From an uncultured Pseudomonadota bacterium (GTDB lineage: Bacteria > Pseudomonadota > Gammaproteobacteria > Ga0077536): a DNA stretch of 64,000 bases. Both the position numbers and the translations under genes were made by a program. Every line of letters starts with the position of its first letter. Position 1 is the first letter of the stretch. Location of the stretch: positions 538 through 64,537 of the forward strand of contig CACDEI010000003.1 in the NCBI GenBank assembly GCA_902551695.1, read 5' to 3'. The notes under the pieces were generated by a model. That model was not told where the DNA came from and ran no database searches. It saw only the letters and a list, made by a program, of their open reading frames with translations. This document shows positions 1,110-52,988 of the stretch, one piece after another.

Positions 1110-3557
1110 ATGAAGAAATTAATAGTCATTCTGAGCCTTGGTATATTGATCATAGGGAGTGGAGTGTTCTACTCTCAAATTATTAAAGGATTACCTGATG
1201 TTGAATCGTTGAAGCAAGTACAGCTTCAAACGCCCCTTCGTGTTTATTCTTCCGACGAAAAGTTGATGGCTGAGTTTGGTAAAAAAAGGCGGAAGCCTGT
1301 GGCTTTGATTGGTGTTCCAAGAATATTTACTGCAGCTTTTATCGCTGCCGAGGACGCCAGTTTTTTTTCTCATTCAGGAGTGGATTGGATGGCTATGGGA
1401 AGAGCAGCTATTCAATATCTGAAGACGGGTGAGAAACGACAGGGTGGGAGTACGATTACTATGCAGGTTGCTCGTAATTTCTTTCTCTCCTCTGAAAAGA
1501 CTTTTGTCCGAAAATTCAGGGAGCTAGTTCTCGCCTCGATTATTGAGCAAAAGCTCTCAAAAAATGAAATATTGGAGCTATACCTTAATAAGATTTTTCT
1601 TGGACACCGAGCATATGGAATAGGAGCGGCAGCACAAGTATACTATGGCAAAGACATTGCAGATCTAGACCTTGCGCAGATGGCTATGATTGCAGGTTTA
1701 CCCAAAGCACCCTCAAGAATGAATCCTATAACCAACCCCCAGGCGGCAAAAAAAAGGCGTCTTTATGTGCTCAATAGGATGAAAACACTTGGATATATCA
1801 GTAGAAAAGAGTTCGATGTGGCCACAAAGAGTGCTGTCACTGCCAAATGGCATGGATATTCATCTGAAGTTTCTGCCCCTTACGTTGCGGAGATGGTTCG
1901 AGAGTTCATGGTTAAAAGTTTTGGTGAAAAAAGTTATGAAGAAGGTTTTGAAGTTATCACTACCATAAAGAGTAATCTTCAAAAGAAAGCACAAAATGCG
2001 TTACAGAGAGGCCTTATTGAATATGATCGACGTCATGGCTATCGGGGTGCTGAGGGAGCTGTAGTGATCGGAGATCATGCTGTGATATCAGAGAGTGTAT
2101 TGGCTGAGTCGTTAAGGCCTTTCGCAAAAGTGGGAGGTCTTGTCCCAGGTGTCGTGACTTCAGTGGAGGATAAAAAACTATTTGTATGGGTCCAAGATCA
2201 TGGAGAGGTTTTACTCTCGGAGGATTCCTTGCGGGAAGCTCGTCCGTATCAAACTGCTGATGCCCGAGGCCCGGTGCCGGATTCTTTTTTGGGTATTTTT
2301 TCTGAAGGGCAAATTATTCGCGTTAGTAAAAAAAATGTTCCACAAGAAGAAATCACATTACTGGCTTCTGGGGAATGGCAACTTTCGCAGTTACCTGCAG
2401 TCGAAGGCGCTATTGTTTCATTAAATCCTAAAAACGGGGCAGTACTTTCTTTGGTTGGAGGTTTGGATTTTAAGAAAAGTAAGTTTAATAGAGTCACTCA
2501 AGCAAAACGACAGGTAGGTTCGACTTTCAAGCCTTTTTTATACTCCGCAGCCCTAGAGAAAGGGTACACTGCAGCATCCATAATTAATGATGCGCCCATA
2601 GTTTTTAAAACCAAAAACGCTCTCGGGACTTGGCGGCCTGAAAATTTCAGTGGTAAATTTTACGGGCCCACTAGGCTTAGGCAGGCTTTGACTAGGTCTC
2701 AGAATATGGTTTCAGTACGTTTACTCGATTCTATAGGAATTGATTATGTTATCGACTATGTGTCTCGGTTTGGTATAGAGACAAACCAAGTCCCCAGAGA
2801 TTTATCTTTGGCGCTGGGATCGGGAGAAATGACTCCTCTTGGGGTGGCAGCTGGCTATTCAGTTTTCGCGAATGGTGGTTTTGCCGTTAATCCGTATTTT
2901 GTACAAGTGGTGAAAAATCGTGATGGGGAGGTGGTCTACGAGGCTAGTCCCGAAACAGTATGCGACATTTGTGATTCAGTCGTTTTAGACGATGAGGGAG
3001 AACCAGCGGATTTAGAAAGCTTGATGGCAATGAAAGAGCTGCCGCCAGACTCTATAGCAAAAAGGGTTATTACCGGTGAAAACAGTTGGTTAATTTCCTC
3101 AATGTTACGGGATGTAATTAAATTAGGCACTGGTCGAAGAGCTAAAGTGATTGGTAAGAAGGATTTATCTGGCAAAACAGGTACAACGAATGAACAGCGA
3201 GATGCTTGGTTTTCCGGATATAGTTCTCAAGTTGCGACCACTGTCTGGGTGGGATTTGATAAAGTAGCTCCCTTGGGTCGAAGAGAGACAGGAGCAAAAG
3301 CTGCCCTTCCAATTTGGGTGTCCTTTATGACAGGTGCACTTGCTAATCTAGAGGATAATGTTCCTGAAAGACCGAACGGCTTGGTTGTTGTTAGAATTGA
3401 TAGGAAAAGCGGAAAACTCTCCAGTGTTGGGAATCCGTCTTCTGTTTTCGAGGTGTTTCGAGAGTCTAATGTTCCCACGCGGGAGAGAGGTTCAGACTAT
3501 AGCTCTTCCGAAGAAGGTGGACAAAAAGGGGCGATAAAGCTCGAACAAATTTTCTGA
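1110..3557 (+). CDS. mrcA: Penicillin-binding protein 1A (bifunctional glycosyltransferase/transpeptidase)
   Basis: 815-aa ORF. It has an N-terminal TM, GT51 motifs (EDASFFSHSGVD, GGSTITMQVARN) and transpeptidase motifs (STFKP, SGKTGTTN). Confidence 0.95.
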   Translation: MKKLIVILSLGILIIGSGVFYSQIIKGLPDVESLKQVQLQTPLRVYSSDEKLMAEFGKKRRKPVALIGVPRIFTAAFIAAEDASFFSHSGVDWMAMGRAAIQYLKTGEKRQGGSTITMQVARNFFLSSEKTFVRKFRELVLASIIEQKLSKNEILELYLNKIFLGHRAYGIGAAAQVYYGKDIADLDLAQMAMIAGLPKAPSRMNPITNPQAAKKRRLYVLNRMKTLGYISRKEFDVATKSAVTAKWHGYSSEVSAPYVAEMVREFMVKSFGEKSYEEGFEVITTIKSNLQKKAQNALQRGLIEYDRRHGYRGAEGAVVIGDHAVISESVLAESLRPFAKVGGLVPGVVTSVEDKKLFVWVQDHGEVLLSEDSLREARPYQTADARGPVPDSFLGIFSEGQIIRVSKKNVPQEEITLLASGEWQLSQLPAVEGAIVSLNPKNGAVLSLVGGLDFKKSKFNRVTQAKRQVGSTFKPFLYSAALEKGYTAASIINDAPIVFKTKNALGTWRPENFSGKFYGPTRLRQALTRSQNMVSVRLLDSIGIDYVIDYVSRFGIETNQVPRDLSLALGSGEMTPLGVAAGYSVFANGGFAVNPYFVQVVKNRDGEVVYEASPETVCDICDSVVLDDEGEPADLESLMAMKELPPDSIAKRVITGENSWLISSMLRDVIKLGTGRRAKVIGKKDLSGKTGTTNEQRDAWFSGYSSQVATTVWVGFDKVAPLGRRETGAKAALPIWVSFMTGALANLEDNVPERPNGLVVVRIDRKSGKLSSVGNPSSVFEVFRESNVPTRERGSDYSSSEEGGQKGAIKLEQIF

Positions 3558-17514: not shown

Positions 17515-17928
17515 CTAAGACGTATGCTTTAGACCAGGAGACTCTTTTTTAAGCGCATTAGCTTTTTCTCGGGCTTGTTTTTCAGTAGGAAAAACCAGGT
17601 CTTCATAAAGTACTACAGGGATATTTGGATCTACACATAATTGACCTACAGCAAATTGTTCTGGCTCGGGTGAGACCACCACAAACCAACCTTTAACTGG
17701 GCCAGGCCTGTATCCGTTGAGTTTATATAGTAACTTTGCAAAATCAGCATAAGGTCCTTTAAGTTCTAGCGTAGGATATATTTTCTCATCTTTGATGGAG
17801 CTGCTTGAAGACCAACGCCAGGGTAGAGTAGTGGCTCCACTCTCGTTAAGAGACTGCGCTCCTCTAATTGCAGGATGCAACCACCAATAGTGATCTCTTT
17901 CTAGTGGGACCTCCTCTTTCGAGCTCAA
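17515..17928 (-). CDS. Small protein distantly related to the two dimethylformamidase-small-subunit-like ORFs
   Basis: 137 aa. Its start overlaps the stop of the 802-aa gene by 4 nt. The C-terminal half aligns by eye with ORFs 20350..20784 and 31698..32018. Confidence 0.45.
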   Translation of the reverse strand: MSSKEEVPLERDHYWWLHPAIRGAQSLNESGATTLPWRWSSSSSIKDEKIYPTLELKGPYADFAKLLYKLNGYRPGPVKGWFVVVSPEPEQFAVGQLCVDPNIPVVLYEDLVFPTEKQAREKANALKKESPGLKHTS

Positions 17929-20333
17929 GGTAGTGGTCCTTCTTTAAGAAATCCATTGATAACGTTTTGCATAATTTTAGACACATTGTTATCGTAGTTA
18001 TTATGTTGCAAAGAACCACACCACGACATCGAGCCAACTGAGAAAACTGCGCCATTTTCTGGGGTTTTGTAGTACACGATATCCGCACGTGTCCATGGAT
18101 TTGTTTCACCAGTTCCTCCTGGGATATAACCTCTGGCATTAAATGTCGATTCTTCAGTAACGGACACGAAGATATCATTGTGCCCTTCGGAGTGCGCGAG
18201 AAGGTAAGCGTTGTGAGGTGTCCCTAACTCCAGGTCGTATCGATCCAGCTCTAGTCCTGCAGCTCCCCCTCCCACTAAACCGAAATTACCAATGGGCTCA
18301 TTTTTACCAATGCCTTTAAAAATCCATTTGCATTCGGGTAGTTCGCTGTCAGGCGCCCTTCTGTAGTAAGAGGAATAGGTCAGGCCAAAGGAAGTGAAAG
18401 TCACGCCTAGTAGTTTGCTCATAACTCTTCCGCGGACCCGCCAAAGACCACCGTGCTTACCATCAAAAGCATTACAATATTCTCCCGGTGTGACTGTCCA
18501 GGCTCGGGTCCCGTTATCACCCTTTCGTACCTCAATAATATTGGGGTTATCAGGGTGTGGTACAGTGATCCAATAAAAACCGTTTGCAGCCAAATACATC
18601 CAACGGCCGCCCTGCAGTTGGTAGTCGTGATATGCATCCATTTGTTCTTCTGAAATATATTCAGGATGGTGTCCAGTCAACGCGATCGGATATTTTTTGA
18701 GGAGCGACACGCCTTCTCTGTGTATATCCTCGTCGGTATAGATGTCCACGTCGTACCCCAATTCATAAAGCCAGTCGACCAAATGTAGATCTGCATTAAA
18801 CTGCCAAATGGAAGGTGAAAGTATATGTAGATATTTTGGTCTCATGTTTAGTATGGGACGAAGTCGAGAAGATATGTTTACGCCCCAACCATCTCGATAG
18901 CTTGTGTATGTTCCAAGACCATAACCTCGTTCTTGATTAAGTAATAAATCTTCTGGCTGAAGGAGAGGGACTTGTCCTGTTAACAATTCAGCGATAACGG
19001 AATTTACACTTAGATTATCGTTGGCGTAAGCCATATAGCTGTGTGTCGACATAACAAGCGCAATGGAGGCTGTTGTTGTTCCAGTGGGAGGCTTTACGAA
19101 GAAAGGAATGTAATCTTCATGGTCGGGTGTAGACTTGCCGTTAACTCGAAGTCGGGCCGCGTACACACCGCTTGTCATTTTTTCCGTGATTTTAAGTGTA
19201 AAGCTGTTTTTCCATCTTGCATCGTCAACAGACTCATCGTGAAAATGAATAGCCCCGTATTCTTGCGGGCCATGCTTAAAACTCATGAAATGAGAGGACC
19301 AATTGTGGCCTATGACACCTCGTACGGGTAAATTCACTCCTACCCCGTGCAGATGATTTGGCGAGCAGTCTGTGATTTTTGTGGACGCTGCGTCAATCGA
19401 GATGTTTTCACAAAAATCCCAGAACCCTATTATAGAGGACCTAAGTTCGGTGGGAATTCCCTCAAGCCTCTGGTTATTAAGTAGGATCTCTATCTGATCC
19501 CGTCCGAGCGCTGCATTTGAGAGTCTGGGTCGCTCTATTTTGCCGTTAAATTTTGTAGTATGTTCGGGAACTTCAAGGGGCTCTTTCAGGTGGTCGTAGT
19601 GTCCACCGGATAACAGCCGACCAGTATGTGTTTCGGATGTGCTGGCGGCCATTAAAAGAGGACATTCGTTTTGGCTTAGCGAGATGTCTGGAGCGCTGTA
19701 TTTTTTTACTACCTCAGTTTCTTCCCGAGGATGCAACATGCTCATCCCATGACCGCCGTTTGTGGCCGTGAGATAGGGTATCTGTCCTATTACGACTTGC
19801 CCTTTTTCTGCGTCATAGCTTGCGAAAACTTTGTACCAGACTTTCCTCAACAGAGGCTTTCTGCTACTGAAACTCGACACTTTGCCTCTACCGCCTCCTA
19901 GTTTAAATTCCAATTCTCCCTCTTCATTGATAAAAAGCCCATAACCTTTCTTTTTCTTTGCATCCCATTTCGAGATGATAGCTTGCTCCCCAACTGGAAC
20001 TCCCTCTACATCCAACTTAGGGGTGGTTGGATAGATAAAGGCGGATACTGTCAAACTTTTAGAATTAAGTTTTTCGTTGTCAGGTACAAGAATATAGCTT
20101 CCTGCCATCAGTGGTTGGTTTAAGCCTTTGTAACTCCCATTAACGCTGGTGCGAATCACTTTTTCCTTGAACCCTGGTCCATCAGGATTAGTGTCGCCAT
20201 TGATCAGTCTGACAATATCTACTTTGTATTCTTCATTGAACTCAGAGTGGACGTAAAAATTAAGCTCCTCACCAGGAGTTACGGAACACTTATCTGTGTA
20301 CCCCGTTATTCGCAGCATATAATTCTGTTTCAT
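17925..20333 (-). CDS. N,N-dimethylformamidase large (beta) subunit-like protein, paralog 1
   Basis: 802 aa. A LamG-like N-terminal half is followed by a C-terminal domain with conserved blocks AIHFHD, SYMAYAN, SRLRPILNMRPKY and GGGAAGLELDR. All four blocks are shared with ORF 29396..31669. The family call is from memory of DmfA2-like proteins. Confidence 0.7.
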   Translation of the reverse strand: MKQNYMLRITGYTDKCSVTPGEELNFYVHSEFNEEYKVDIVRLINGDTNPDGPGFKEKVIRTSVNGSYKGLNQPLMAGSYILVPDNEKLNSKSLTVSAFIYPTTPKLDVEGVPVGEQAIISKWDAKKKKGYGLFINEEGELEFKLGGGRGKVSSFSSRKPLLRKVWYKVFASYDAEKGQVVIGQIPYLTATNGGHGMSMLHPREETEVVKKYSAPDISLSQNECPLLMAASTSETHTGRLLSGGHYDHLKEPLEVPEHTTKFNGKIERPRLSNAALGRDQIEILLNNQRLEGIPTELRSSIIGFWDFCENISIDAASTKITDCSPNHLHGVGVNLPVRGVIGHNWSSHFMSFKHGPQEYGAIHFHDESVDDARWKNSFTLKITEKMTSGVYAARLRVNGKSTPDHEDYIPFFVKPPTGTTTASIALVMSTHSYMAYANDNLSVNSVIAELLTGQVPLLQPEDLLLNQERGYGLGTYTSYRDGWGVNISSRLRPILNMRPKYLHILSPSIWQFNADLHLVDWLYELGYDVDIYTDEDIHREGVSLLKKYPIALTGHHPEYISEEQMDAYHDYQLQGGRWMYLAANGFYWITVPHPDNPNIIEVRKGDNGTRAWTVTPGEYCNAFDGKHGGLWRVRGRVMSKLLGVTFTSFGLTYSSYYRRAPDSELPECKWIFKGIGKNEPIGNFGLVGGGAAGLELDRYDLELGTPHNAYLLAHSEGHNDIFVSVTEESTFNARGYIPGGTGETNPWTRADIVYYKTPENGAVFSVGSMSWCGSLQHNNYDNNVSKIMQNVINGFLKEGPLP

Positions 20334-20349
20334 TTTCTATTAGCCCCTG

Positions 20350-20784
20350 TCACATTTTTATGTCATATTTTTCGCAAAGCGCTTTAAGTCTCTTTAAAAA
20401 AATCGCATGCTCCGCATCTTCTCGGGTAGCGTATTTTTCTTTCGTGATTCGGACGTTTCCCCCGCGCCTGCCAGGAAGAACGCCAATCGAATATTCTTTC
20501 CACGGTACTGTTTCTACAATTGTGTGTTTTCCAGTTTGGGGCACCATTCTCAACATGTCTACGAGCTGAGCTAGAGTGCTGCTTTGAAGTGGTGGTGGCG
20601 TACCAGGTAATGTGGGGCCACCCCGAGGAAAAGTCCTGTGCTCTGCAATTAAGGCATCTCGACTTTCTTTGTTCTTAAGGTGATTCAAAAGGTAGGTCCG
20701 CACATTATAATCATCTACGGCTCGAAAAGAATAATTATCTCGCAGTGCAGTGGTCTTCTGTTCTGCCCCAACTTTCTTTTTCAT
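20350..20784 (-). CDS. Candidate small (alpha) subunit partner of the DMFase-like enzyme
   Basis: 144 aa, 16 nt upstream of the large-subunit-like gene. This is the dmfA1-dmfA2 gene order. It is homologous by eye to ORF 31698..32018. Confidence 0.5.
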   Translation of the reverse strand: MKKKVGAEQKTTALRDNYSFRAVDDYNVRTYLLNHLKNKESRDALIAEHRTFPRGGPTLPGTPPPLQSSTLAQLVDMLRMVPQTGKHTIVETVPWKEYSIGVLPGRRGGNVRITKEKYATREDAEHAIFLKRLKALCEKYDIKM

Positions 20785-24063: not shown

Positions 24064-25473
24064 TCAGTCTAAAAGGGGTCTCATTTTATGCCAATTGGTC
24101 ATTTTTTCGTAGGCTGAAGAGATTTTTATGAGAGTGCTCTCTTCCCCTTTTTTGCCGATAAATTGCATGGAGGTGGGCAGACCATCTTCAGTGAATCCAT
24201 TTAACAAAGTGATAGATGGGTGTCCAGAAAAGTTAGTGGGTGCGGAGAACCTTACCAAAGGGGGAATTTCTTCGATGGGAGATACTGCTTGAGGGGGCAC
24301 TGCCGAGATTGAAGGTGCAGGGTTCGGCATGCCCGGACATACCATTACATCGATTCCGCTTAATAGCTCGTTTATGAGAGCGTTGGTTGATTGGCGCTGT
24401 CTGGTGGCTCTCGCATAAGCTACAGAATCTACTTTTTCACCATATTCTAGGAGTGCACGAAATACGGGGCCGTAGTCCTCCCGATGTTTTGGAAAAAATT
24501 GTTGGTGACTTATTAGGGCTTCAACAGAGCATATAGTCATCCAGTGTTCTGCTGCATCGTAGAGTTCAGGCGCCGTCAGTTCTAGAATAGTCGCTCCATT
24601 TTCTTCCAATAATTCTATGGATTTGAAAAGTGCAGTGGTCATTTCTGGATCGGTGTCAGTTGTGCAATAAACCCTATCGATGCCTATTTTTAATCCACTT
24701 ATGTCCTTTCCAATTTCCTGAAGATAGTTAGTCTCCTTATCTAGTCTAGTCGAGGCATCTCTTGGATCACGCCCTTCTAGGATTTGTAGCATTGCAGCCG
24801 CGTCCCAAACACTCCTAGCCATTGGTCCGATGTGGTCTAAAGTATCAGCAAGAGGAAAAACACCATAGCGACTTACTTTGCCAAAGGTTGGTTTAATTCC
24901 TACGATTCCACATGCAGCGGCGGGAAAACGGATGGAACCCCCTGTATCCGTCCCAAGGCTAGCGAAGCAAAGAGAGGCGGCAGTTGCCGCGCCGGAGCCG
25001 GATGAGGAGACTCCTGCCCAGTGATCTTTGTTCCAGGGGTTTCTCGGAAACTCTAGTTTGGGGTGGTAACCATATAGCGCAAATTCAGTTAAGTTAAGCT
25101 TGCCGAGCATCACACTACCCGCGGCCTGCAGTTTTTCAACAACGGTTGCATCATAGCTAGGTACAAAATTTTCCATAAGCGTGGATGCACATTTTGTCGG
25201 AATATCGGCGGTATATATCAAATCTTTGTACGCAATGGGTATGCCGTGAAGGGGGCCAAGACATTCTCCTTTCAGAATCTGCTTCTCTGCTAACTCTGCA
25301 TCCGAAATGGCTTTATCTGCAGTAACAAGGGAATAACTGTGAATTTCATCATCGTACTTCTCGATCCGAGATAGCATCCCCTTTGTCAACTCAGTAGGTG
25401 AAATCTCCTTGTTCTTTATTAAAGGCGCGAGCTCTTGGATATTTTTTGTCAGTAGTTCCGAAAGATCACTCAA
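24064..25473 (-). CDS. Amidase-signature family amidase
   Basis: GVSSSGSGAA and GTDTGGSIRFPAA signature motifs. 469 aa. Confidence 0.9.
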   Translation of the reverse strand: MSDLSELLTKNIQELAPLIKNKEISPTELTKGMLSRIEKYDDEIHSYSLVTADKAISDAELAEKQILKGECLGPLHGIPIAYKDLIYTADIPTKCASTLMENFVPSYDATVVEKLQAAGSVMLGKLNLTEFALYGYHPKLEFPRNPWNKDHWAGVSSSGSGAATAASLCFASLGTDTGGSIRFPAAACGIVGIKPTFGKVSRYGVFPLADTLDHIGPMARSVWDAAAMLQILEGRDPRDASTRLDKETNYLQEIGKDISGLKIGIDRVYCTTDTDPEMTTALFKSIELLEENGATILELTAPELYDAAEHWMTICSVEALISHQQFFPKHREDYGPVFRALLEYGEKVDSVAYARATRQRQSTNALINELLSGIDVMVCPGMPNPAPSISAVPPQAVSPIEEIPPLVRFSAPTNFSGHPSITLLNGFTEDGLPTSMQFIGKKGEESTLIKISSAYEKMTNWHKMRPLLD

Positions 25474-25613: not shown

Positions 25614-25829
25614 CTACCCAAAACGGATCAGGTCCTCCGAAGTGGGAAAGCCTCCACATGAGCTTTTTTCCTTTGAAAATACCTTGATTCCATTAATATA
25701 AATATCAAAAACGCCACCAGATCCTTCAGTCAATGTAACCTCTTTATGGCCAAGAGAAGATAATTCATCCCTCACACGGAGAGCTTCTGGTCGGTAATTT
25801 CATACCCCGCAATATTTTATTTCAACCAT
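25614..25829 (-). CDS. SelW-like (Rdx family) selenoprotein with in-frame UGA (Sec at codon 10)
   Basis: Not in the ORF track. Manual translation gives MVEIKYCGV[TGA]NYRPEALRVRDELSSLGHKEVTLTEGSGGVFDIYINGIKVFSKEKSSCGGFPTSEDLIRFG*. It has a CxxU redox motif and the GGVF....G..(I/V)FSK....FP core typical of SelW/Rdx proteins. The ATG lies 5 nt after the cinA stop. Confidence 0.8.
25769..25783 (-). promoter_or_regulatory. Candidate bacterial SECIS apical hairpin
   Basis: The mRNA reads CUCUC-CGUGU-GAGGG, a 5-bp stem including one G-U pair. The loop contains G and U and begins 17 nt after the UGA. Flanking CCAGAAG / CUUCUCUUGG could extend the helix. Confidence 0.4.
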
Positions 25830-25834
25830 CACTT

Positions 25835-27070
25835 TTAGCTCACTGTTTTGCATAGTTGCAACCTTAACGCATTCAGTAGGCTTATTACACTAAATTGTCC
25901 AATTCTTGCTTTATCCCCTGGTAAAAGTACTTTTTCAATCAGATTAGTTTTTCCATAGGCTATTCCGAGATAGGTCTCCCCTTTAGCGCTTGAACCAGTC
26001 TGATCATGGGTGCCCGTTATTGAGAGTCCAATGTCAGCCGAAAATAGTGATTTAACCTTCTGGGCTAAGTGAGTGGCAGATTCCTCAGTCCCTATAGAAT
26101 CCTGATCTAAGCCTAAAATGGCCATCCTTGAAATTTCGGAATTCGGGACAATCCCACCGAGGAATATAGAGCCCTCAGGGTCGGCGTTACTTAGGCGTGC
26201 GGATGCGACCCCAGCGCTGGTTAGCTCGGCTATTGCTACAGTAAGTTTTAGTCGCTTAAGGATATCTACTATGATGGATTCCATAGTTTCATCATCGATG
26301 CCGAAAATGCAGTCGCCAAGTATGCCTCTAATTACGGATTCTTCCTCTTTGAGTAATACTTCTAGCTTTTGGGAATTTTGAGCTCTAGCGGTTATCCTGA
26401 CTTTTAATCCTTCTATACCGCTAGCCAGGAAAGCCAAGGTAACCTCTTTAGATTCATTTAGGTATTCTATTCTTTGGCTTAGCATCTCTGCTAGTTTTGA
26501 TTCGCTGTGACCCCACGTTTTTATTACCCTGCTTCCTATTACATTCTTTCTTCCAGATCTCCTGACTATATCCGAAAGGATCGTGGATTGAATCATTTGT
26601 TTTAGTTCGTATGGGACGCCTGGCACTGCGTAAATTACTTTATCATCGATTGGGCAGATAAGACCGGGAGCGGTTCCTGGTTGATCTTCTATCGCCGTCG
26701 CTCCGACCGGCACCAACGCTTGTCTCAGATTATTTTGAGGCATGCTACGTCCTCTTGACTCAAACATTTTTCTTATTTTGTTCTCAATATGTTTATTGCT
26801 TTGAAGAGTTGTCCCCATTACTTTGGCGATAGCTTCGCGAGTGATATCGTCTTGAGTGGGGCCTAATCCACCGCAACAGATAATTGCTTCGGCTCTCTCT
26901 AAAGAGGATCTCAAGGTGGTGACGATTCTCTCGATATTATCTCCCACCTTTATTTGAAGGTGAGAATCTATTCCATTCAACGCCAGTTGCTCCCCCAACC
27001 AGGAAGAGTTTGTGTCGATTATTTGACCCAGCAATAGTTCCGTCCCGATGGCTACAACTTCACAACGCAT
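25835..27070 (-). CDS. cinA: CinA-family protein (MoCF-binding domain plus nicotinamide-nucleotide amidohydrolase PncC domain)
   Basis: The N-terminus EVVAIGTELLLGQIIDTNSSWLGEQL is typical CinA. 411 aa. Confidence 0.9.
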   Translation of the reverse strand: MRCEVVAIGTELLLGQIIDTNSSWLGEQLALNGIDSHLQIKVGDNIERIVTTLRSSLERAEAIICCGGLGPTQDDITREAIAKVMGTTLQSNKHIENKIRKMFESRGRSMPQNNLRQALVPVGATAIEDQPGTAPGLICPIDDKVIYAVPGVPYELKQMIQSTILSDIVRRSGRKNVIGSRVIKTWGHSESKLAEMLSQRIEYLNESKEVTLAFLASGIEGLKVRITARAQNSQKLEVLLKEEESVIRGILGDCIFGIDDETMESIIVDILKRLKLTVAIAELTSAGVASARLSNADPEGSIFLGGIVPNSEISRMAILGLDQDSIGTEESATHLAQKVKSLFSADIGLSITGTHDQTGSSAKGETYLGIAYGKTNLIEKVLLPGDKARIGQFSVISLLNALRLQLCKTVS

Positions 27071-29395: not shown

Positions 29396-31669
29396 TCAAA
29401 ACGTGTCATCAAGAAGCTTCTTGTTAGAAATGAATCTATCTAATACATTTTTCGTAATGCGGGACACGTTATTTTTATAATTATTATGAGACAGAGAACC
29501 CGCCCATGCTATGGAACTTGTAGAAAAAACGCCGCCATTATTTTGAGTGGGGAAAAAAGCCATGTCTGCTCTAACAAGCGGGTTTTCTTGTCCTCCCAGC
29601 CCGGGGTAATTAATTAAAATTTCTTCATTCACCACGAGATAAATATCAGTATGGTTGACCGAAGAAGCTAGCAGATATGTAGAAGGAGGCGTTCCTAAAC
29701 CTACATCCACTCGATCGAGCTCTAGTCCGGCAGCCCCTCCACCTATTAACCCAAAGTCGCCAATTTTCTCGGTTTTGCCAACCCCCTTCATGATCCAAGC
29801 AACTTCTTTCCTGTGACTATCAGGTTTTCTTTCGTAGTAGGAGGAAATATCGAAGCCCTGCGCTGTGAAGCCTGTTCCTACGATCTTTTGCGGCGGACGC
29901 CCGTTTCTTCTCCATAGTCCTCCATACTCGCCGGTAAATGCATGATAGTACTCTCCAGTCTTTGGTTCCCATCCACGTATTCCACCTTCATTTCTTCGTA
30001 CCTCTATTATCCCCGGTTCACTTTCGTGAAATGCGATCCGCCAGTACCAACCGTTTGCCCCTAGGTACATTAGGCGCCCCCCTTTCTGTTGGTACGCCAT
30101 CATCGCATCCCACATATCTTTCGAGTGATACTCAGGATGAGATGAGCTGAGAACCACCTTGTATTTTTCAATCGATTTTAGACCCTCGTAATGTAATTCT
30201 TCGTCAGTTATCACGTCATAGTCATAATTCATTGCCTCTAGCCAATTAGTGATGTGCGTGTCGGCATTGAACTGCCATAGACTAGACCCTGATCCACCAA
30301 GCCAACTCCTATACTTGGGTCGCATATTGAGGATTGGCCTCAACCTGGAGGAATACGCCACTCCCGAGCCGTCACTGTGATGGTCGTAGCAGCTCGCGCC
30401 GTATTCTCGGTGTTCGTTTCTATACAGATCTTGTCTTTCGTGTTCTACGAGTCGTCCGCCTAGCAACTGCGCAACCGGCACATCGGTTCCCATATGTTCA
30501 TTTGCGTAGGCCATGTAACTTGCAGTGGGTAATAAGAAGCAAATTTTAGCCGTAGCTCTTCCCCTAGGCGGAAGTACGGCGAAAGGGACATAATCTTCCT
30601 CCTGTAGAGAAGAGCCGCACCTCAATCGAGCAGCGTACAACCCGCTCCTGAAGGATTTTGGAATAGTCAAGGTAAAGTCAACCTCCCAGTCAGCATCGTG
30701 GACATCGTCATCGTGAAAATGTATTGCCCCATACTGATCCTGTGCGTTCTTCCAATTGAGTTCGTCACCAGTCCAGTTCCAACCCGTCATTGCTCTGGTT
30801 GGCATATTCACCACACCCCCATGAAGTCGATTTGCAGAGCGGTCTGTGACGGTTGTCCCTTGTATATCGTTTGAAAAGTCCCACCTAGCAATCAAACTTT
30901 CGATTTTAACCTGTTCGGAATCCAATCTTTTCAAAGCCTCTTCTTGGCCTGGAGAAATTGGCGAATGGCAAATCGCGGGAGAGTCAATTTTTCCATTAAA
31001 ATGTCGATGACAAACCAGTCGATTCTTATCTTCTGATGTGTAAAGGGCTCCTATGGTCAAAGGAGCGTCATTTGTATTCAAAGAAACTGTTCCCGTAACT
31101 TTTCTTGAAATGTTAGCCTTGTCTTTGGTACCTGTGTGGCTATGCAGAGGTTCTTGTCGTATGCTGGCGATTTGTGTTTCTGAATCATAACTGACGGTGA
31201 TAAAATACCATTCATTCGATAGCAGCGGAGCCTTGGTCTGTAATTTAAAAACTTTTTTTCGGCTCAATCCGATCTCCAAGGCCACCCCTTGGTTTTTTTC
31301 TGCTACTCCAAAATTAAATCCGCTGTTGGTTTTAGGAGACCAATTTCCTAAAATTGTTTGCGCTCCTTTCTCCGGAGTCGTAGGCCAAATAAAAACTTGA
31401 GCTGAAAAGCTCCTTAAAGCATTAAAGTGGCTGCTACTATCGATTTTCGCATAGGATCCGGCATGTATTTTCTGTTGTCGTCCTTTGTACTTTCCGCTCG
31501 TCCTGCTCTTTACGACCTTTTCTTTGTAACCAGGGCCCCCCGGGTTCAAATCGCCGCATATAAGTTTTACAAATTCTACATCGAAAGATTTGTTTTCGCA
31601 GTTCACCATAAAATCTATGGTTTCCCCAGGTGCTGCACTCATTTTGTTTGCGTATGCGGTTATTTTCAT
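29396..31669 (-). CDS. N,N-dimethylformamidase large (beta) subunit-like protein, paralog 2
   Basis: It has the same conserved blocks as 17925..20333. I chose the ATG at 31669 (MKITAYANKMSAAPGETIDF aligns with MLRITGYTDKCSVTPGEELNF). The ORF is open to 31750 but would overlap the upstream small ORF. Confidence 0.7.
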   Translation of the reverse strand: MKITAYANKMSAAPGETIDFMVNCENKSFDVEFVKLICGDLNPGGPGYKEKVVKSRTSGKYKGRQQKIHAGSYAKIDSSSHFNALRSFSAQVFIWPTTPEKGAQTILGNWSPKTNSGFNFGVAEKNQGVALEIGLSRKKVFKLQTKAPLLSNEWYFITVSYDSETQIASIRQEPLHSHTGTKDKANISRKVTGTVSLNTNDAPLTIGALYTSEDKNRLVCHRHFNGKIDSPAICHSPISPGQEEALKRLDSEQVKIESLIARWDFSNDIQGTTVTDRSANRLHGGVVNMPTRAMTGWNWTGDELNWKNAQDQYGAIHFHDDDVHDADWEVDFTLTIPKSFRSGLYAARLRCGSSLQEEDYVPFAVLPPRGRATAKICFLLPTASYMAYANEHMGTDVPVAQLLGGRLVEHERQDLYRNEHREYGASCYDHHSDGSGVAYSSRLRPILNMRPKYRSWLGGSGSSLWQFNADTHITNWLEAMNYDYDVITDEELHYEGLKSIEKYKVVLSSSHPEYHSKDMWDAMMAYQQKGGRLMYLGANGWYWRIAFHESEPGIIEVRRNEGGIRGWEPKTGEYYHAFTGEYGGLWRRNGRPPQKIVGTGFTAQGFDISSYYERKPDSHRKEVAWIMKGVGKTEKIGDFGLIGGGAAGLELDRVDVGLGTPPSTYLLASSVNHTDIYLVVNEEILINYPGLGGQENPLVRADMAFFPTQNNGGVFSTSSIAWAGSLSHNNYKNNVSRITKNVLDRFISNKKLLDDTF

Positions 31670-31697
31670 CAGACTTTCATCCTCCCAACGGTATTTT

Positions 31698-32018
31698 TTA
31701 CTTCTGAAGCTTCTCTCCGGTAAGGTGTTTCCAGCGCTCTCTAAAAACATACCATTCGGCGTCAGCTAAATTTTGAAACCTCAGGTTAGTGGGTTTCACT
31801 GGTTCTCCAGGTATCCCAGATGTTTTTGCTAGAATCCACTCCTTGTTAGATTCGCTAACGATTAGGCAATGTTTCTTTCCCATCGGCGCACCACGCATCA
31901 CATTGAGAAGCCTTTGCAATTGTGGGCTGTGGTGACCTACGGGATTTTCTTTGAATTCTTCAATAAGATCTGCGAACTTTGTGCTGCATAGATCAGATAT
32001 ATCAAATGAGCTTGCCAT
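31698..32018 (-). CDS. Candidate small (alpha) subunit partner of DMFase-like paralog 2
   Basis: 106 aa, immediately upstream of the large gene. By eye, LQRLLNVMRGAPMGKKH...NLADAEWYVFRERWKHL aligns with LAQLVDMLRMVPQTGKH...TREDAEHAIFLKRLKAL in ORF 20350..20784. Confidence 0.5.
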   Translation of the reverse strand: MASSFDISDLCSTKFADLIEEFKENPVGHHSPQLQRLLNVMRGAPMGKKHCLIVSESNKEWILAKTSGIPGEPVKPTNLRFQNLADAEWYVFRERWKHLTGEKLQK

Positions 32019-32113: not shown

Positions 32114-32737
32114 ATGAATGGTGCACACGATCTGGGTGGTATGCAGTGCTACGGCTCAATAAGAATAGAAAAAGACGAACCGATTTTCCATGATGAATGG
32201 GAAAAACGTGTTTTTGCAGCCACAATGGTGTCTTTTGGAGCATTGGGTTCGATAGACGCGTTTCGCCACGCTATCGAGAGAATGGGTGCAGAGAAATATT
32301 TAAGCACTACCTACTATGAACACTGGCTGGCTGCATTGGAGATGAGAATTGAAGAAACTAAATTACATTCTAAAGCAAAGTCCGATGTACCTTTGACCCC
32401 TGAAGATGTGGATGCCATTGTTCCTACGGGCGGAAATTATTTTAGGGAGGGGGTTGATTCAGAAATCCGTTTTGCAACTGGCGATAGGGTCAGAGCAAAA
32501 AATATTAATCCTGCCGGACACACACGTCTACCTCGATACATACGGGGTAGAGAAGGGGAAATTGTAACCAATAGGGGAAATTTTGTCTTTCCTGACACTG
32601 TTGCTCATGATTTAGGCGAATCTGCGCAACCTTTGTACTCTGTTCGCTTTGAGTCGGCGGAACTATGGGGAAGTGAGGAAGGTCGGGATGCAGTGTATAT
32701 AGACCTGTGGGATAGTTATTTGGAGAAGGCCGAATGA
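32114..32737 (+). CDS. nthB: Nitrile hydratase beta subunit
   Basis: N-terminus [10 protein letters not shown]...[14 protein letters not shown] is typical of NHase beta. It overlaps the alpha gene by 4 nt. Confidence 0.9.
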
Positions 32738-33375
32738 GTAGCAACCATAAGCATTCAGAACCCGCTAATCCCTACCTCGAAAAGCGAAGAAACGGAGAGG
32801 AGACCAGCGAATTAGAAAAAAGAGTCTCTGATATCGAAGCACTTTTGATATCAAAAGGGATAGTCTCCAAAGAATCTTTGGATAGAATGATTGAGATATA
32901 CGAGAAAGACCTTGGCCCAATGAACGGTGCTAGAGTGGTAGCTAAGGCATGGACTGATGATGAGTATAAAAGCAGGTTATTGCAAGATGGGACAAGCGCA
33001 ATAGCTGAACTCGGTTTTAGCGGATTGCAAGGTGAGCACATGGTTGTAATTGAAAATACGCAAGAGGTTCATAACGTCGTCGTTTGTACCTTATGCTCCT
33101 GCTATCCATGGCCTGTGCTGGGTCTTCCCCCGTCGTGGTATAAGGATGCACCTTACCGTTCCAGAATCGTTTTAGAGCCTCGGGAGGTGTTGGAGGAATT
33201 TGGAACTTTCTTGCCTGAACATCAAGAAATTCGTGTGTGGGATAGTAGTGCTGAAATTCGATATATGGTTTTGCCCCGCCAACCCGAGCAATCTAAGGGT
33301 GCGAGTGAGGATAAGCTTGTTGGGTTAGTTACTAGAGACTCTATGATAGGCGTTGGCCTCCCGAAACCTTCATGA
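32734..33375 (+). CDS. nthA: Nitrile hydratase alpha subunit, cobalt type
   Basis: The metal-binding motif VCTLCSCY has Thr and Tyr, the Co-type signature. The beta-before-alpha gene order is also typical of Co-type enzymes. Confidence 0.93.
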
Positions 33376-37693: not shown

Positions 37694-38641
37694 ATGAATT
37701 TACGAAAAGTTGATTTGAATCTGCTTGTGATTTTTGATGCTTTGATGCAAGAGAAAAATGTAACAAAGGCAGCAAGTCGGGTGGCTTTGTCCCAGCCTGC
37801 CTTTAGTAACGCATTGTCTAGATTAAGGCATTACCTAAAAGATGATCTGTTTGTGCGAAGTCCTGATGGGATGTTGCCAACCCCCAGAGCTCGTGAGCTC
37901 GCTCCTCATATTTCAAGTGTCATCTCGATTTTGCAATCTGCCCTTGAGCCTGGAGAGTTTGACCCGGCTTGTGACAGCAAAGTTTTCAGAATTAGTGCAA
38001 ATGATTATCTTGTAGCCACAACCATCACTGAGTTGATGGTTCGGCTTAATGAGGAGGGTCCTAATCTTGATGTCAGAGTGATCGATAGGGGAATCAATCC
38101 CAAGAAGGTATACCGAGCTTTAGACACGGGTGAAATTGATTTAGCAATTGGCGCCTACGGTGACGTTCCCGAGCGGTATGGCGTTTTTTATATTGCTGAT
38201 ACGGACTTTGTATGTATGATGCGTTCAAGCCATCCTCTGGCGGAGGGCTACTTGACTCTAAAACGCTTTGCTAAGGCAAAACATCTTTTGGTTACCCCAG
38301 GTGGGGACGCATTGGGCTTTGTTGACGAGGCCCTAGCGAGAGCTGGGTTATCTCGTAGGATTAGCTTGACGGTAAATCATTTCTCCGTGGTGCCAGCTTT
38401 AATTGCCAGAACCGACATGATTACTACTATTCCTCGGAGAATCGCCCGGACATATGAACCGCTTTACGACATAAAATTACGACCTTCCCCAGTGGAAACA
38501 CCTGGTAAGTACGCCACAGTTGCATTGATATGGCACAAGGAGTTTGGTCAAAACCGCGCTCAAAGTTGGTTTAGAGATCAACTCCTAAAAGTCACGGAAG
38601 AACAGCCAGATTTCAGAGGAAAAAAGCAGAAGCCACTCTAA
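37694..38641 (+). CDS. LysR-family transcriptional regulator
   Basis: N-terminal wHTH (DLNLLVIFDALMQEKNVTKAASRVALSQPAFSNALSRLR) plus a substrate-binding domain. Confidence 0.92.
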   Translation: MNLRKVDLNLLVIFDALMQEKNVTKAASRVALSQPAFSNALSRLRHYLKDDLFVRSPDGMLPTPRARELAPHISSVISILQSALEPGEFDPACDSKVFRISANDYLVATTITELMVRLNEEGPNLDVRVIDRGINPKKVYRALDTGEIDLAIGAYGDVPERYGVFYIADTDFVCMMRSSHPLAEGYLTLKRFAKAKHLLVTPGGDALGFVDEALARAGLSRRISLTVNHFSVVPALIARTDMITTIPRRIARTYEPLYDIKLRPSPVETPGKYATVALIWHKEFGQNRAQSWFRDQLLKVTEEQPDFRGKKQKPL

Positions 38642-39146
38642 TTTTTTAAGGTCTTCAATACGTTTTGAGGTGCTGATACTCCGTAAGGATCTTCGTTATG
38701 GTTGTCAGAAAAACCGGGTTCTTCGAACCAGTGAGTTACGACTAGATCATCAATAATCGCGGCGTAACGCCAAGAGCGCATGCCAAATCCTAGGTTATCT
38801 TTTCCGACTAACATCCCCATTTTTCGAGTGAATTCACCTGAGCCATCGGGTATGAGGGTAATATTTTTAATATTAAGGGATTTGCCCCAGGCATCCATTA
38901 CAAAAGCATCATTTACCGAGATACAATATATGGTGTCTATTCCAATATTCTTGAATTCGGGAAACAAGCTATCGTAATCGGGAAGTTGAAAAGTGGAGCA
39001 TGTGGGTGTGAACGCACCTGGAAGCGAGAAAATGACGGCTCGCTTTTTTGAAAAATAATCTTGCGTGGTCCTATCTTCCCATCTAAACGGGTTGTCTCCA
39101 CCGGCAGATACTTTTCCACACCAAGTTCATCCAAGGTGTGGGCCAT
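38638..39146 (-). pseudogene. Prx5-type (atypical 2-Cys) peroxiredoxin interrupted by a 1-nt frameshift near 39080-39095
   Basis: One frame carries the catalytic body, DYFSKKRAVIFSLPGAFTPTCS...ISVNDAFVM...SWRYAAII. It has no start codon and has a TGA 28 codons upstream of PGAFTPTCS. The ATG at 39146 opens another frame (MAHTLDELGVEKYLPVETTR). The span is 509 nt, one short of a multiple of 3. Confidence 0.75.
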
Positions 39147-46693: not shown

Positions 46694-47605
46694 TTAATTA
46701 CGGCCATACTGCAAAGGAAAATGGACAGTTACTAATACTCCATCATTGCGCTGTGCAAGCTCTCGCATGAGAGTCGAGAATCGGTCTCCCACGCCCCAAG
46801 GAAAGGCAATCCCGTGAATCTGAGCGCTTTTATATTTTTTGTCTTTTTTTTGATTCAGAATTTGAATTCTTGTTATGACGTCGTCGTAGGAAGGTCCCGT
46901 AAAATCATCACCCATTACATAGATTGAAATTCCGCCTGGAACATTGGAGTGAAACCTTAAGGCCTTCTCTAGTCCTTTTGTGGGATTGCTATTAGAAAAG
47001 GAATTCCATCTTTTCAGCTTTTCAGAAATTCTTTGCCGGGTTATCTGCGTGTCTGGAACCCATCTGGAAGAATAGCCTTGCAACAGATAATCTCCATTAT
47101 CACTCATTATTTGGATTCCTTTGACCTTCGGATGAATCGATAGGATGGTATCGATTTGTTTTTCGACTGTGGCCCAGAATCTTTTCATGCTCCCAGAAGT
47201 GTCGAGGATAAAAACAACATACTCTCTTTCGACCGGGATTCCTCCAGCGTAGATGGACTCAATGGGCTTAATATTGGAATGGTTCGGAACTGAAGGTTTC
47301 TTTTCCGACTGGATCGATGAGATTTCCACGTCTTTTTTTTCTTCGACTAATGTCATTAGTTGTACTTCGAGATCACGCTTTCTACGATTTAGATCGTTAA
47401 TCTCGTTTTCCAGGTTTCTTATTTTTGTTTTGACTTGCGTTTCAGATGAGGTTCTTGCTTCCGGTTTGAATAACTCTGCCTCAATAGGATCAAATTTTGA
47501 ATCCTTGGCAATAATGACTAGCATAATCACAGCACCAAACCCGCACGATATGATATCTAAAAACGACATACCGACATCAAAATTGGAGCGCTGTTTTATT
47601 TTCAT
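46694..47605 (-). CDS. ExbD/TolR-like TM (conserved Asp) plus coiled coil plus vWA (MIDAS) protein, paralog 2
   Basis: The ATG at 47605 overlaps the upstream stop (ATGA). The TM SFLDIISCGFGAVIMLVIIA resembles ExbD PFIDVMLVLL. A coiled coil follows. The vWA domain has DTSGS, NPTKG and a YVMGDD MIDAS set. Confidence 0.7.
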   Translation of the reverse strand: MKIKQRSNFDVGMSFLDIISCGFGAVIMLVIIAKDSKFDPIEAELFKPEARTSSETQVKTKIRNLENEINDLNRRKRDLEVQLMTLVEEKKDVEISSIQSEKKPSVPNHSNIKPIESIYAGGIPVEREYVVFILDTSGSMKRFWATVEKQIDTILSIHPKVKGIQIMSDNGDYLLQGYSSRWVPDTQITRQRISEKLKRWNSFSNSNPTKGLEKALRFHSNVPGGISIYVMGDDFTGPSYDDVITRIQILNQKKDKKYKSAQIHGIAFPWGVGDRFSTLMRELAQRNDGVLVTVHFPLQYGRN

Positions 47606-48621
47606 TTTAACCAATAACTTGCGGGTGAAAAGAGAGTGCCACCGGTCGAGTTTGCCCAATGTAGGTAATTGTGCGCGGCTCTTGGATCGCCCTCTAGAGC
47701 TAATAAGATAACGTTTACTTTCACACTGGATTGGTTGCCGAATTTGTTAATTGCCTCTAAGAAAAATGTTTCCCTACATTCACCGCTAACGTATTGCGAG
47801 TTGGAGTTTCTGCATCCCTTTATAAACTTCCCAATAGCTCTTATTGGGTTGGTCTGCCCCGAGAGGGTAGGAAGACCGTCAGTGACAAGATAGATATCAG
47901 TAGCTTCGGAAGAACTACTTTGAATATGCTCGAGAACAGTCGCGAGGCTAGTTCCATTTTTAGGTGAAATGTTCTTTATGCTCGTATTGAATTGGTTGAG
48001 TGTAGAAACACTATCCCCCCACGAGGAACTCTCGAAGGTTATTTTCTCCGAAAATCCGATAACCTTTAGTAGACTAGAATCCGGAGCTTTTTTTATAAGC
48101 CACCGAGTGATGTTTTTCGCTTGACGCCATTTTCTTCCCGACGCTAGTCTTTTGCCTGACATGTCCTCTAACCCACTTAAAATATCAATAAGCTGGGGAA
48201 AAGCCATCGATGCGCTGGTATCTAGCAGGATCTGTATTTTCGGTCCTGTTACTGCCAAGCCAATGAGTTGATTTGCCACATCTATGTCTTTTCTTTGGGG
48301 TTCTGGTTCAGCAGTTTTATCAATATCTTGCAGTTTTAATTTTGTCTCTAATAGCTTCACAGTTGAGTCACTTACTTTTTTTGAGAGCCTTTTTATTTCA
48401 TTAAGTTTCGAATTTTTTGCATCCAGCATTGCTGCATACTTTTCCTCTAAGTGAACAGTGTTATTCTCTATGGCGGGGCCATTAATTATTTGCGGGACGG
48501 ATTCTTCATTAAAGTCAAGGATGAAAAAGAGTAGGATGACCGCGCCAAGACCGCAGGCCATCACGTCAATAAAAGCTAAGGTAGATATGTTTGTTTCACG
48601 TTTTTGTCGCACGTTACGCAC
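47602..48621 (-). CDS. ExbD/TolR-like TM (conserved Asp) plus coiled coil plus vWA (MIDAS) protein, paralog 1
   Basis: The TM is AFIDVMACGLGAVILLFFIL, followed by a coiled coil. The vWA domain has DTSAS, NGTSL and a LVTDG MIDAS set. The start lies 4 nt after the stop of the MotA-like gene. Confidence 0.7.
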   Translation of the reverse strand: MRNVRQKRETNISTLAFIDVMACGLGAVILLFFILDFNEESVPQIINGPAIENNTVHLEEKYAAMLDAKNSKLNEIKRLSKKVSDSTVKLLETKLKLQDIDKTAEPEPQRKDIDVANQLIGLAVTGPKIQILLDTSASMAFPQLIDILSGLEDMSGKRLASGRKWRQAKNITRWLIKKAPDSSLLKVIGFSEKITFESSSWGDSVSTLNQFNTSIKNISPKNGTSLATVLEHIQSSSSEATDIYLVTDGLPTLSGQTNPIRAIGKFIKGCRNSNSQYVSGECRETFFLEAINKFGNQSSVKVNVILLALEGDPRAAHNYLHWANSTGGTLFSPASYWLK

Positions 48622-52980: not shown

Positions 52981-52988
52981 TTTTTAGG

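Follow-up and report, generated by a model that had tools for sequence, protein, structure and literature searches.

A probable SelW-like selenoprotein gene with an in-frame UGA and a covarying downstream hairpin, located next to cinA in an uncultured proteobacterium

Introduction

Directly downstream of the cinA gene of an uncultured proteobacterium lies a short reading frame whose tenth codon is TGA. The question raised by this locus is whether this TGA ends translation, is read as a standard amino acid or is decoded as selenocysteine (Sec). An earlier note on this DNA had proposed an unannotated gene for a SelW-like selenoprotein, with the redox motif CGVU, and had pointed to a small hairpin behind the TGA. 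These proposals were followed up in the whole stretch of 64,000 nucleotides under analysis (the window) and in related loci from genomes and metagenomes.

Bacterial SelW-like selenoproteins have been described from the Sargasso Sea, from the GOS data and from bacterial genomes (Zhang and Gladyshev; PMC2398784, PMC1794560). Among the marine selenoprotein families, the SelW-like proteins with a CxxU motif rank first in abundance, with 427 Sec forms versus 56 Cys forms in GOS (PMC2398784), and the bacterial proteins are said to have few Cys homologues (PMC1794560). Since the family is already the most abundant one among marine selenoproteins, a further member is biologically expected.

Results

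Gene Call and Reading Frame

The frame, the TGA and the stop of the proposed gene, here called selW, were all re-read in the sequence, and the gene was placed on the minus strand, which the earlier description had not stated (Table 1). The stop codon of cinA (TAA, 25837-25835) is followed by a spacer of 5 nt, AAGTG, and then by the ATG of selW (25829-25827), exactly at the distance that had been claimed. Translation through the single TGA yielded the anticipated product of 71 codons, with Sec at codon 10, MVEIKYCGV-(TGA)-NYRPEALRVRDELSSLGHKEVTLTEGSGGVFDIYINGIKVFSKEKSSCGGFPTSEDLIRFG, and then two stops, a TAG (25616-25614) and a TGA directly after it on the minus strand. The codon for Cys7 of the CGVU motif occupies 25811-25809.

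The start was set at M-x-x-IKYCG by the family alignment, in which the start lies 2-4 residues ahead of IKYCG. Another in-frame ATG, at 25853, was not accepted as the start, since it overlaps with cinA and has no counterpart in L001 or L008, two of the relatives described below. Additionally, a GAG resembling a weak Shine-Dalgarno sequence precedes the ATG and may function as such; an equivalent GAG or AGGAG was found 9-10 nt upstream of the ATG in L001, L008 and L009.

The mechanical listing of open reading frames contains only the stretch 25614-25775 on the minus strand, with 53 amino acids from a GTG, and the public protein records P0002-P0008 are all truncated calls of 53-54 amino acids. 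A scan of the TGA read-through frames in the window yielded no convincing candidate for a second selenoprotein gene.

Table 1. Features of the selW locus in the window.
Feature	Coordinates	Strand	Basis or remark
SelW-like (Rdx family) probable selenoprotein CDS	25614..25829	minus	Pfam Rdx, TIGR02174, family alignment
Putative Sec codon UGA, U of the CGVU redox motif	25800..25802	minus	Codon 10; conservation and Cys alignment
Predicted core SECIS-type hairpin, also encoding A-L-R-V-R-D	25769..25783	minus	Covariation, RNAalifold, loop GU
Predicted UGA + SECIS unit matched by covariance model R1	25764..25802	minus	34.3 bits, E 1.4e-7, top match in the window
GTG, false start of public gene callers (53-aa product)	25773..25775	minus	Junction of SECIS loop and 3' arm
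Weak Shine-Dalgarno-like GAG (candidate)	25839..25841	minus	9 nt ahead of the ATG, within the final codons of cinA
cinA (MoCF_biosynth + CinA_KH + CinA)	25835..27070	minus	Pfam domains seen in the syntenic gene of L001
Amidase gene	24064..25473	minus	PF01425 on the L001 orthologue

Gene Neighborhood

The amidase gene lies downstream of selW on the same strand, after a gap of 140 nt, and its synteny was observed in L001, L008, L009, L029, L046, L058, and L063. The wider order, with apbA on the opposite strand, then cinA-selW-amidase, then ogt/alkA again on the opposite strand, was kept in L063, L008, L001, and L009. The closest of these loci is L063, with a CinA of 99.5% identity and a SelW identical to that of the window, while at a CinA identity of about 59-60% both the gene order and the TGA were still found in all of L029, L046, L049, and L058. 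As no consensus for a sigma-70 promoter or for a terminator was detected in the 5-nt spacer between cinA and selW, both genes are likely co-transcribed. The order cinA-selW-amidase is the sole contextual clue to a substrate or partner of SelW.

Retention of the TGA Across Relatives

The TGA was kept in all of the 15 syntenic cinA-selW-amidase loci, over a range of CinA identity of 59-99%. In the Tara contig L001, which is one of them, the gene begins with ATG GTT GAA ATA AAA TAT TGC GGA GTG TGA, and the nine codons upstream of the TGA deviate from those of the window only by synonymous changes (GGG to GGA, GTA to GTG). These nine codons were conserved among the relatives in general, with changes mostly at third positions; coding conservation was thus present on both sides of a conserved in-frame UGA among the orthologues. 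The codon is also TGA in L002, whose product is 71% identical; its public translation (P0001) shows W at this place because the contig, of 364 bp, was called with a genetic code in which UGA is a sense codon. A scan of species-representative genomes contributed three relevant loci. L008, from the single-cell genome AG-453-E14 ('uncultured proteobacterium'), and L009, from a metagenome-assembled genome (MAG) labelled Gammaproteobacteria, reach 92% and 67% identity, respectively, both with the TGA; the third is L010, a Caldilineaceae homologue of 36% identity.

Moreover, metagenome contigs were searched with the DNA pattern I-K-Y-C-G-[VIM]-(TGA/TGC/TGT)-N-Y, which gave 55 loci. TGA occupied the variable codon in 54 of them, and all 54 run on into a full Rdx-like frame. 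The lone TGC match is not a homologue and was discarded, which leaves TGA in 54/54 true family members. As IKYCG and NY were prescribed by the pattern, these residues are no independent evidence; the absence of TGC and TGT among the true members is. The contigs carrying family members span 34-74% GC, and ten representatives of other subfamilies all passed the Pfam Rdx threshold, with 42.7-75.7 bits. The same pattern had no match in the IMG/VR viral contigs.

Protein Family and Predicted Fold

For the profile searches, Sec was written as Cys. The product matched Pfam Rdx (PF10262) over residues 2-68, across the TGA, with 54.3 bits (cutoff 22.6, E 1.6e-14), and NCBIfam TIGR02174 (CXXU_selWTH) with 47.3 bits (cutoff 34.2). 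The Rdx/SelW fold that had been recognized from the letters was therefore recovered above the curated cutoffs of both models. The part behind the TGA scored 29.4 bits against Rdx by itself, and thus the 18 N-terminal residues gained by read-through account for about 25 bits of the score. The NCBIfam equivalog NF041051 (SelTWH_Campy) was matched with 67.2 bits, under its cutoff of 88; SelW of the window is related to this group but is no member of it.

In a sequence search of the PDB, the matches were the bacterial SelW-related proteins 2OJL, 2P0G, 2OKA, 2FA8, 2OBK, and 3DEX, followed by MIEN1 and mouse SelW. The CGVU motif aligned with CTQC in 2OJL, with CRQC in 2P0G and with CTQC in the homologue of L010, so that U falls on the second Cys of CxxC in all three, as the earlier note would have it; the core GGVF...GGFP is shared with the two PDB proteins.

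The structure that was modelled is that of P0001, the homologue of the same length and 71% identity, in place of the window protein. The AF2 model (pLDDT 88.3) has the elements E2-7, H13-25, E31-36, E40-45, E48-54 and H64-69, in the order beta1-alpha1-beta2-beta3-beta4-alpha2, with CxxU between beta1 and alpha1. When this model was compared with the PDB by Foldseek, the top 21 matches were all bacterial proteins of the Rdx/SelW-related type, with TM of about 0.8, and MIEN1 and mouse SelW came next. By way of this homologue, the window protein is predicted to have the thioredoxin-like beta1-alpha1-beta2-beta3-beta4-alpha2 fold with its motif in the beta1-alpha1 loop.

The six bacterial Rdx structures named above, which are Cys proteins, are thus alike in fold, as far as the model of the homologue represents the window protein, as well as in the position of the redox motif and in the core. 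By contrast, they carry CxxC and involve no recoding; they are about 100 residues long, with additional sequence at the C-terminus, and their identity to the window protein is 25-28%. Dikiy et al. reportedly found in 2007 that mammalian selenoprotein W has a thioredoxin-like fold with CxxU in the beta1-alpha1 loop. The predicted fold and motif position are likewise those of mammalian SelW (2NPB), SelT, SelH, and MIEN1 (PF10262), although the sequence match to mammalian SelW is weak (E 0.19 for 2NPB; Foldseek E 0.036), and the eukaryotic forms differ in using a SECIS in the 3'-UTR together with SBP2/eEFSec.

The Hairpin Downstream of the UGA

The small hairpin that had been noticed in the region of bacterial SECIS elements is present. 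On the minus strand it consists of a 5' arm CUCUC (25783-25779), a loop CGUGU (25778-25774) and a 3' arm GAGGG (25773-25769), with gaps of 16 nt from UGA to stem and of 21 nt from UGA to loop. When 71 nt with the UGA were folded by plain minimum free energy (MFE), it was not recovered, and the fold was no better than those of shuffled sequences (z 0.06), so the support for the structure was drawn from comparison between sequences.

For this purpose, 41 distinct sequences were aligned ungapped from UGA-9 to UGA+45. The hairpin occupied identical columns in all 41, with stems as diverse as CUCUC/GAGGG (window), CAGAAA/UUUCUG, CCGCC/GGCGG, CCGCU/AGCGG, CACUC/GAGUG, CUUCC/GGAAG, and CCGCG/CGCGG. 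Over six pairs, 87.4% of the cells were paired, versus 31-55% when the 3' partner was slid by 1-3 columns; the covariation score was 0.662, versus 0.12-0.24 for the slid partners, and it was matched by none of 500 shuffles. Compensatory changes on both sides occurred in four of the six stem pairs. The pair 30-42 joins two third-codon positions, at which CG, AU, UA, UG, GC, and GU were all seen; covariation at such largely synonymous sites is not explicable by selection on the protein. RNAalifold, when run with no given structure, returned the same helix.

The loop has the consensus NGUNU, in which GU is near-invariant (variants CGUGU, AGUCU, AGUUU, and GGUCU). Its codon NGU stands for Arg, Ser or Gly, with 1.38 bit of variation at the first base and an invariant G. 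At its third base, T is found in 39/41 sequences (0.28 bit), whereas the remaining third positions, except that of the invariant TGA, reach 0.9-1.96 bit. This reversal of the usual variability indicates a constraint at the RNA level.

According to the bSECIS model (PMC13188914), such elements have a loop of 3-9 nt, an upper stem of 4-16 bp, a UGA-loop spacing of 16-37 nt, a G at loop position 1 or 2 (usually as G[G|U]) and an MFE of at most -7.5 kcal/mol. The window hairpin lies within this geometry (loop 5 nt, GU at positions 2-3, stem 5 bp, spacing as given above). Its energy was -4.5 kcal/mol for the core alone and -8.7 to -9.3 kcal/mol in 50-55 nt that include a putative lower stem, so that the energy limit of the model is reached only together with this stem. 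The Rfam search, both at the gathering threshold and at E<=10, detected no SECIS family and only a chance match to SNORD57; bacterial SECIS elements are said to be sparsely covered in Rfam (preprint 10.64898/2026.04.03.716425).

Additionally, a covariance model (R1) was built from 31 sequences of other subfamilies, outside the clade of the window, and the whole window was searched with filters off. The site was found as the top match (Table 1). The runner-up, at 61928-61950 on the plus strand with 17.2 bits, is an out-of-frame caTGAaac in a GST-like gene with the hairpin deleted, and was set aside as a chance match. Judged by this comparison of sequences, the predicted hairpin is a covarying, family-wide element of the SECIS type.

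Genetic Code and Selenocysteine Machinery

The window contains 44 stop-to-stop frames with a length of 200 codons or more, of which 20 end at TAA, 15 at TGA and nine at TAG. One of those ending at TGA (3555-3557) is mrcA (1110-3557; domains Transgly, PCB_OB and Transpeptidase), which had been named as an example of normal TGA use. Since TGA ends 15 of the 44 long frames, UGA is an ordinary stop here and any read-through is local.

No tRNA was found within the 64-kb window, and no tRNA-Sec in the window or the syntenic loci. When SelA, SelB, and SelD of E. coli were used as tblastn queries against the window and all 66 loci, no match was obtained. Pfam profiling of the large window ORFs, 20 further ones included, gave no domain of the Sec machinery; among the products profiled were PBP1A, PriA, ArgRS, an M20 peptidase, MFS transporters, TauD, GST, and pirin. 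The Sec-decoding trait of the host organism is therefore assumed here, as neither selA, selB, selD nor tRNA-Sec occurs in the window or the syntenic loci.

Contig L041 (8.9 kb) carries a tRNA-Sec, detected with ARAGORN as well as with Rfam RF01852 (49.6 bits, cutoff 47), at a distance of 6.3 kb from a family member that belongs to another subfamily. This is the only direct link from the family to the Sec machinery.

Discussion

The locus very probably holds a genuine gene for a SelW-like/Rdx thiol-selenol oxidoreductase of 71 residues, in which the UGA at codon 10 would be recoded to Sec. The profile matches across the TGA, the conservation of this codon, the alignment of U with Cys and the covarying hairpin all point to the selenoprotein that the earlier note had proposed. 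A mechanism can be suggested from the established bacterial Sec pathway. The selW gene would be transcribed together with cinA and translated from the ATG at 25829. With the UGA (25802-25800) in the ribosomal A site, the hairpin would present its GU-containing apical loop to SelB-GTP-Sec-tRNA(Sec), and Sec would be delivered by SelB in competition with RF2. The hairpin would then be melted by the ribosome and read as Ala-Leu-Arg-Val-Arg-Asp, which makes it a putative dual-coding stretch, and the resulting Cys7-x-x-Sec10 in the beta1-alpha1 loop may form a reversible selenenylsulfide redox center.

Among the other explanations, read-through of the UGA without Sec has a small probability. The codon might be read by a near-cognate Cys or Trp tRNA, or the Sec machinery might have been lost, with the hairpin as a remnant or as a general stimulator of read-through. 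The failure to find the machinery in the sequence searched (window and loci) and the W annotated at this codon in P0001 would suit such a reading, but that W comes from a very short contig in which the codon is still TGA, and decoding as Cys or Trp leads one to expect TGC, TGT or TGG in some members, whereas none of the 54 has them. Moreover, the GU loop and the fixed spacing agree with the SelB-dependent bSECIS model, and on L041 a family member is accompanied by a tRNA-Sec.

It is less probable still, and very unlikely, that the TGA is a true stop, either in a decayed Rdx gene or ahead of a 53-aa protein that begins at the GTG (25775). Frames of 53-54 amino acids are indeed called in several assemblies, and the part behind the TGA passes the Rdx cutoff alone. 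However, such a product would be devoid of beta1 and of the whole CxxU motif, while the nine upstream codons are conserved mostly up to third-position changes, and lineages of 34-74% GC have retained the frame together with the TGA and the hairpin. The GTG itself lies inside the SECIS loop, and it is missing in the subfamilies with the loops AGUCU, AGUUU, and GGUCU. Finally, an artefact can be regarded as refuted, be it a sequencing error or a UGA-sense code (table 4 or 25). The W in the translation of P0001 is all that speaks for it, whereas the TGA recurs in assemblies made independently of each other, from a single-cell genome, from MAGs and from metagenomes of Tara and JGI, and a UGA-sense code is at odds with the 15 long window ORFs, mrcA among them, that terminate at TGA.

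Recoding to Sec, the preferred reading, makes the window gene an unannotated addition to the long-described SelW-like family, with a bacterial SECIS of the textbook type. As in the mostly marine SelW-like proteins of PMC2398784 and PMC1794560, the product is a small Rdx protein of one domain, with CxxU near the N-terminus and a SECIS directly after the UGA, and the Sec form is near-exclusive (54 Sec and no Cys forms here, compared with the GOS counts given above). Nothing essential differs; the window copy belongs to the subgroup IKYCG-U-NY. The arrangement cinA-selW-amidase, found in one proteobacterial clade, is not mentioned in the passages of the two reports that were consulted. With the fdhF-type SECIS of E. 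coli and the bSECISearch consensus, the window hairpin shares its location within the coding sequence, immediately 3' of the UGA, a small apical loop that starts with G then U, and a spacing within 16-37 nt. It differs from them in a shorter upper stem of 5 bp, which is also weaker (with the energy given for the core); no bulged U was identified, and the loop consensus NGUNU is specific to the SelW-like family here.

A rather improbable extension is that, in this marine proteobacterial clade, the SelW-like protein might be a dedicated redox partner within a conserved three-gene unit cinA-selW-amidase and not a free-standing antioxidant. If true, this would give the first concrete functional context for bacterial SelW-like proteins, for example if the amidase, or a CinA-type NMN/nicotinamide-nucleotide amidohydrolase, were under redox control.

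By standard gene callers, selW is split or cut short, and public records show either a 53-aa fragment or W at the Sec position. With the call corrected, a redox protein is regained, and the organism can be regarded as a probable user of selenium. The alignment of UGA and hairpin from 41 sequences, collected over the whole GC range of the family, describes a clean, covariation-supported and family-specific bacterial SECIS, and could seed a model for the search of SelW-like selenoproteins in metagenomes. Under dual coding, the predicted hairpin would dictate the amino acids of helix alpha1. Codons 14 and 17, counted from the Ile of IKYCG, were observed to covary as near reverse complements.

RNA Structure and Protein Sequence in the SelW-Like Family

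The two strands of the SECIS stem are supplied by codons 14 and 17, counted from the Ile of IKYCG (columns 31–33 and 39–41 in the ungapped alignment of 41 distinct family sequences). Since these codons pair in the stem, the amino acids at the two positions co-vary among the subfamilies, occurring as Leu/Arg, Glu/Ser, Ala/Ala and Ser/Lys in this alignment. Residues of helix α1 are dictated by the structure of the RNA.

The family is systematically miscalled in public annotation. Seven protein clusters (P0002–P0008) were cut to 53–54 aa, their start being placed at a GTG within the SECIS loop, and the entry P0001, from locus L002 (GCA_025941665.1, JAKRYX011618137.1), is full length but carries W at the Sec codon.

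The covariance model of UGA plus SECIS, built from other subfamilies, gave as its second-best match in the window caTGAaactatcaacccaag, within a GST-like gene (17.2 bits, E 0.007). It was rejected as a chance match, its TGA being out of frame and the hairpin absent.

A SelW-Like Gene Beside tRNA-Sec

A SelW-like selenoprotein of 79 aa (MWTIKYCGI-U-NYRPH...), of a subfamily different from that of the window, was found on the metagenomic contig L041 (ENA ORXF01003537.1, 1–8877), 6.3 kb away from a tRNA-Sec (ARAGORN; Rfam RF01852, 49.6 bits). This contig has a GC content of 35–36% and consists mostly of orphan small ORFs. The related contig L053 encodes a Peptidase_S74 tail-fibre chaperone domain and GT9 glycosyltransferases. 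Such DNA could be a phage or a hypervariable island; a scan of IMG/VR with the IKYCG DNA pattern of the family gave 0 matches. In Actinomarina, selC has been described within a hypervariable region, and an uncharacterised selenoprotein of 78 aa is the commonest one of the genus (2026 preprint). The L041 subfamily may correspond to this 78-aa protein, which would then be Rdx/SelW-like.

Other Genes of the Window

The Prx5-type peroxiredoxin (Redoxin, 86 bits) is a Cys form (PGAFTPTCS). Its own frame has no start codon, and a start, MAHTLDELGVEK, lies in a different frame; adding one A to the run GGAAAAG would fuse both frames (...LGVEKVSAGGDNPFRW...). Either the homopolymer was misread in sequencing or the frameshift is real.

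By synteny with the Tara contig L001, two loci are N,N-dimethylformamidase-like, with DMF_alpha and DMFA2_C domains. Close to them are the genes for nitrile hydratase alpha and beta, an amidase, an M20 peptidase and TauD, and by these assignments the neighbourhood is rich in putative genes of amide/nitrile and organosulfonate catabolism.

Three ORFs of 488, 419 and 321 aa matched no Pfam family at E ≤ 1e-5; they adjoin a VWA-domain protein and an FGE-sulfatase/PEGA protein.

Positions of the features in the window and on contig L041
Feature	Sequence	Position (strand)
SECIS stem, codon 14 / codon 17	window	25781-25779 / 25773-25771
Runner-up model match	window	61928-61950 (+)
Prx5-type gene	window	38638-39146 (-)
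A run at frame break	window	39112-39115
Dimethylformamidase-like loci and surroundings	window	17925-20784 (-); 29396-31750 (-); 32114-33375 (+)
488-, 419- and 321-aa ORFs	window	within 51514-54248 (-) and 46694-47659 (-)
tRNA-Sec	L041	8612-8710
2OG-Fe(II) oxygenase (phrog_81)	L041	
Ribosomal protein S21 (phrog_21469)	L041	
HesB-like protein	L041
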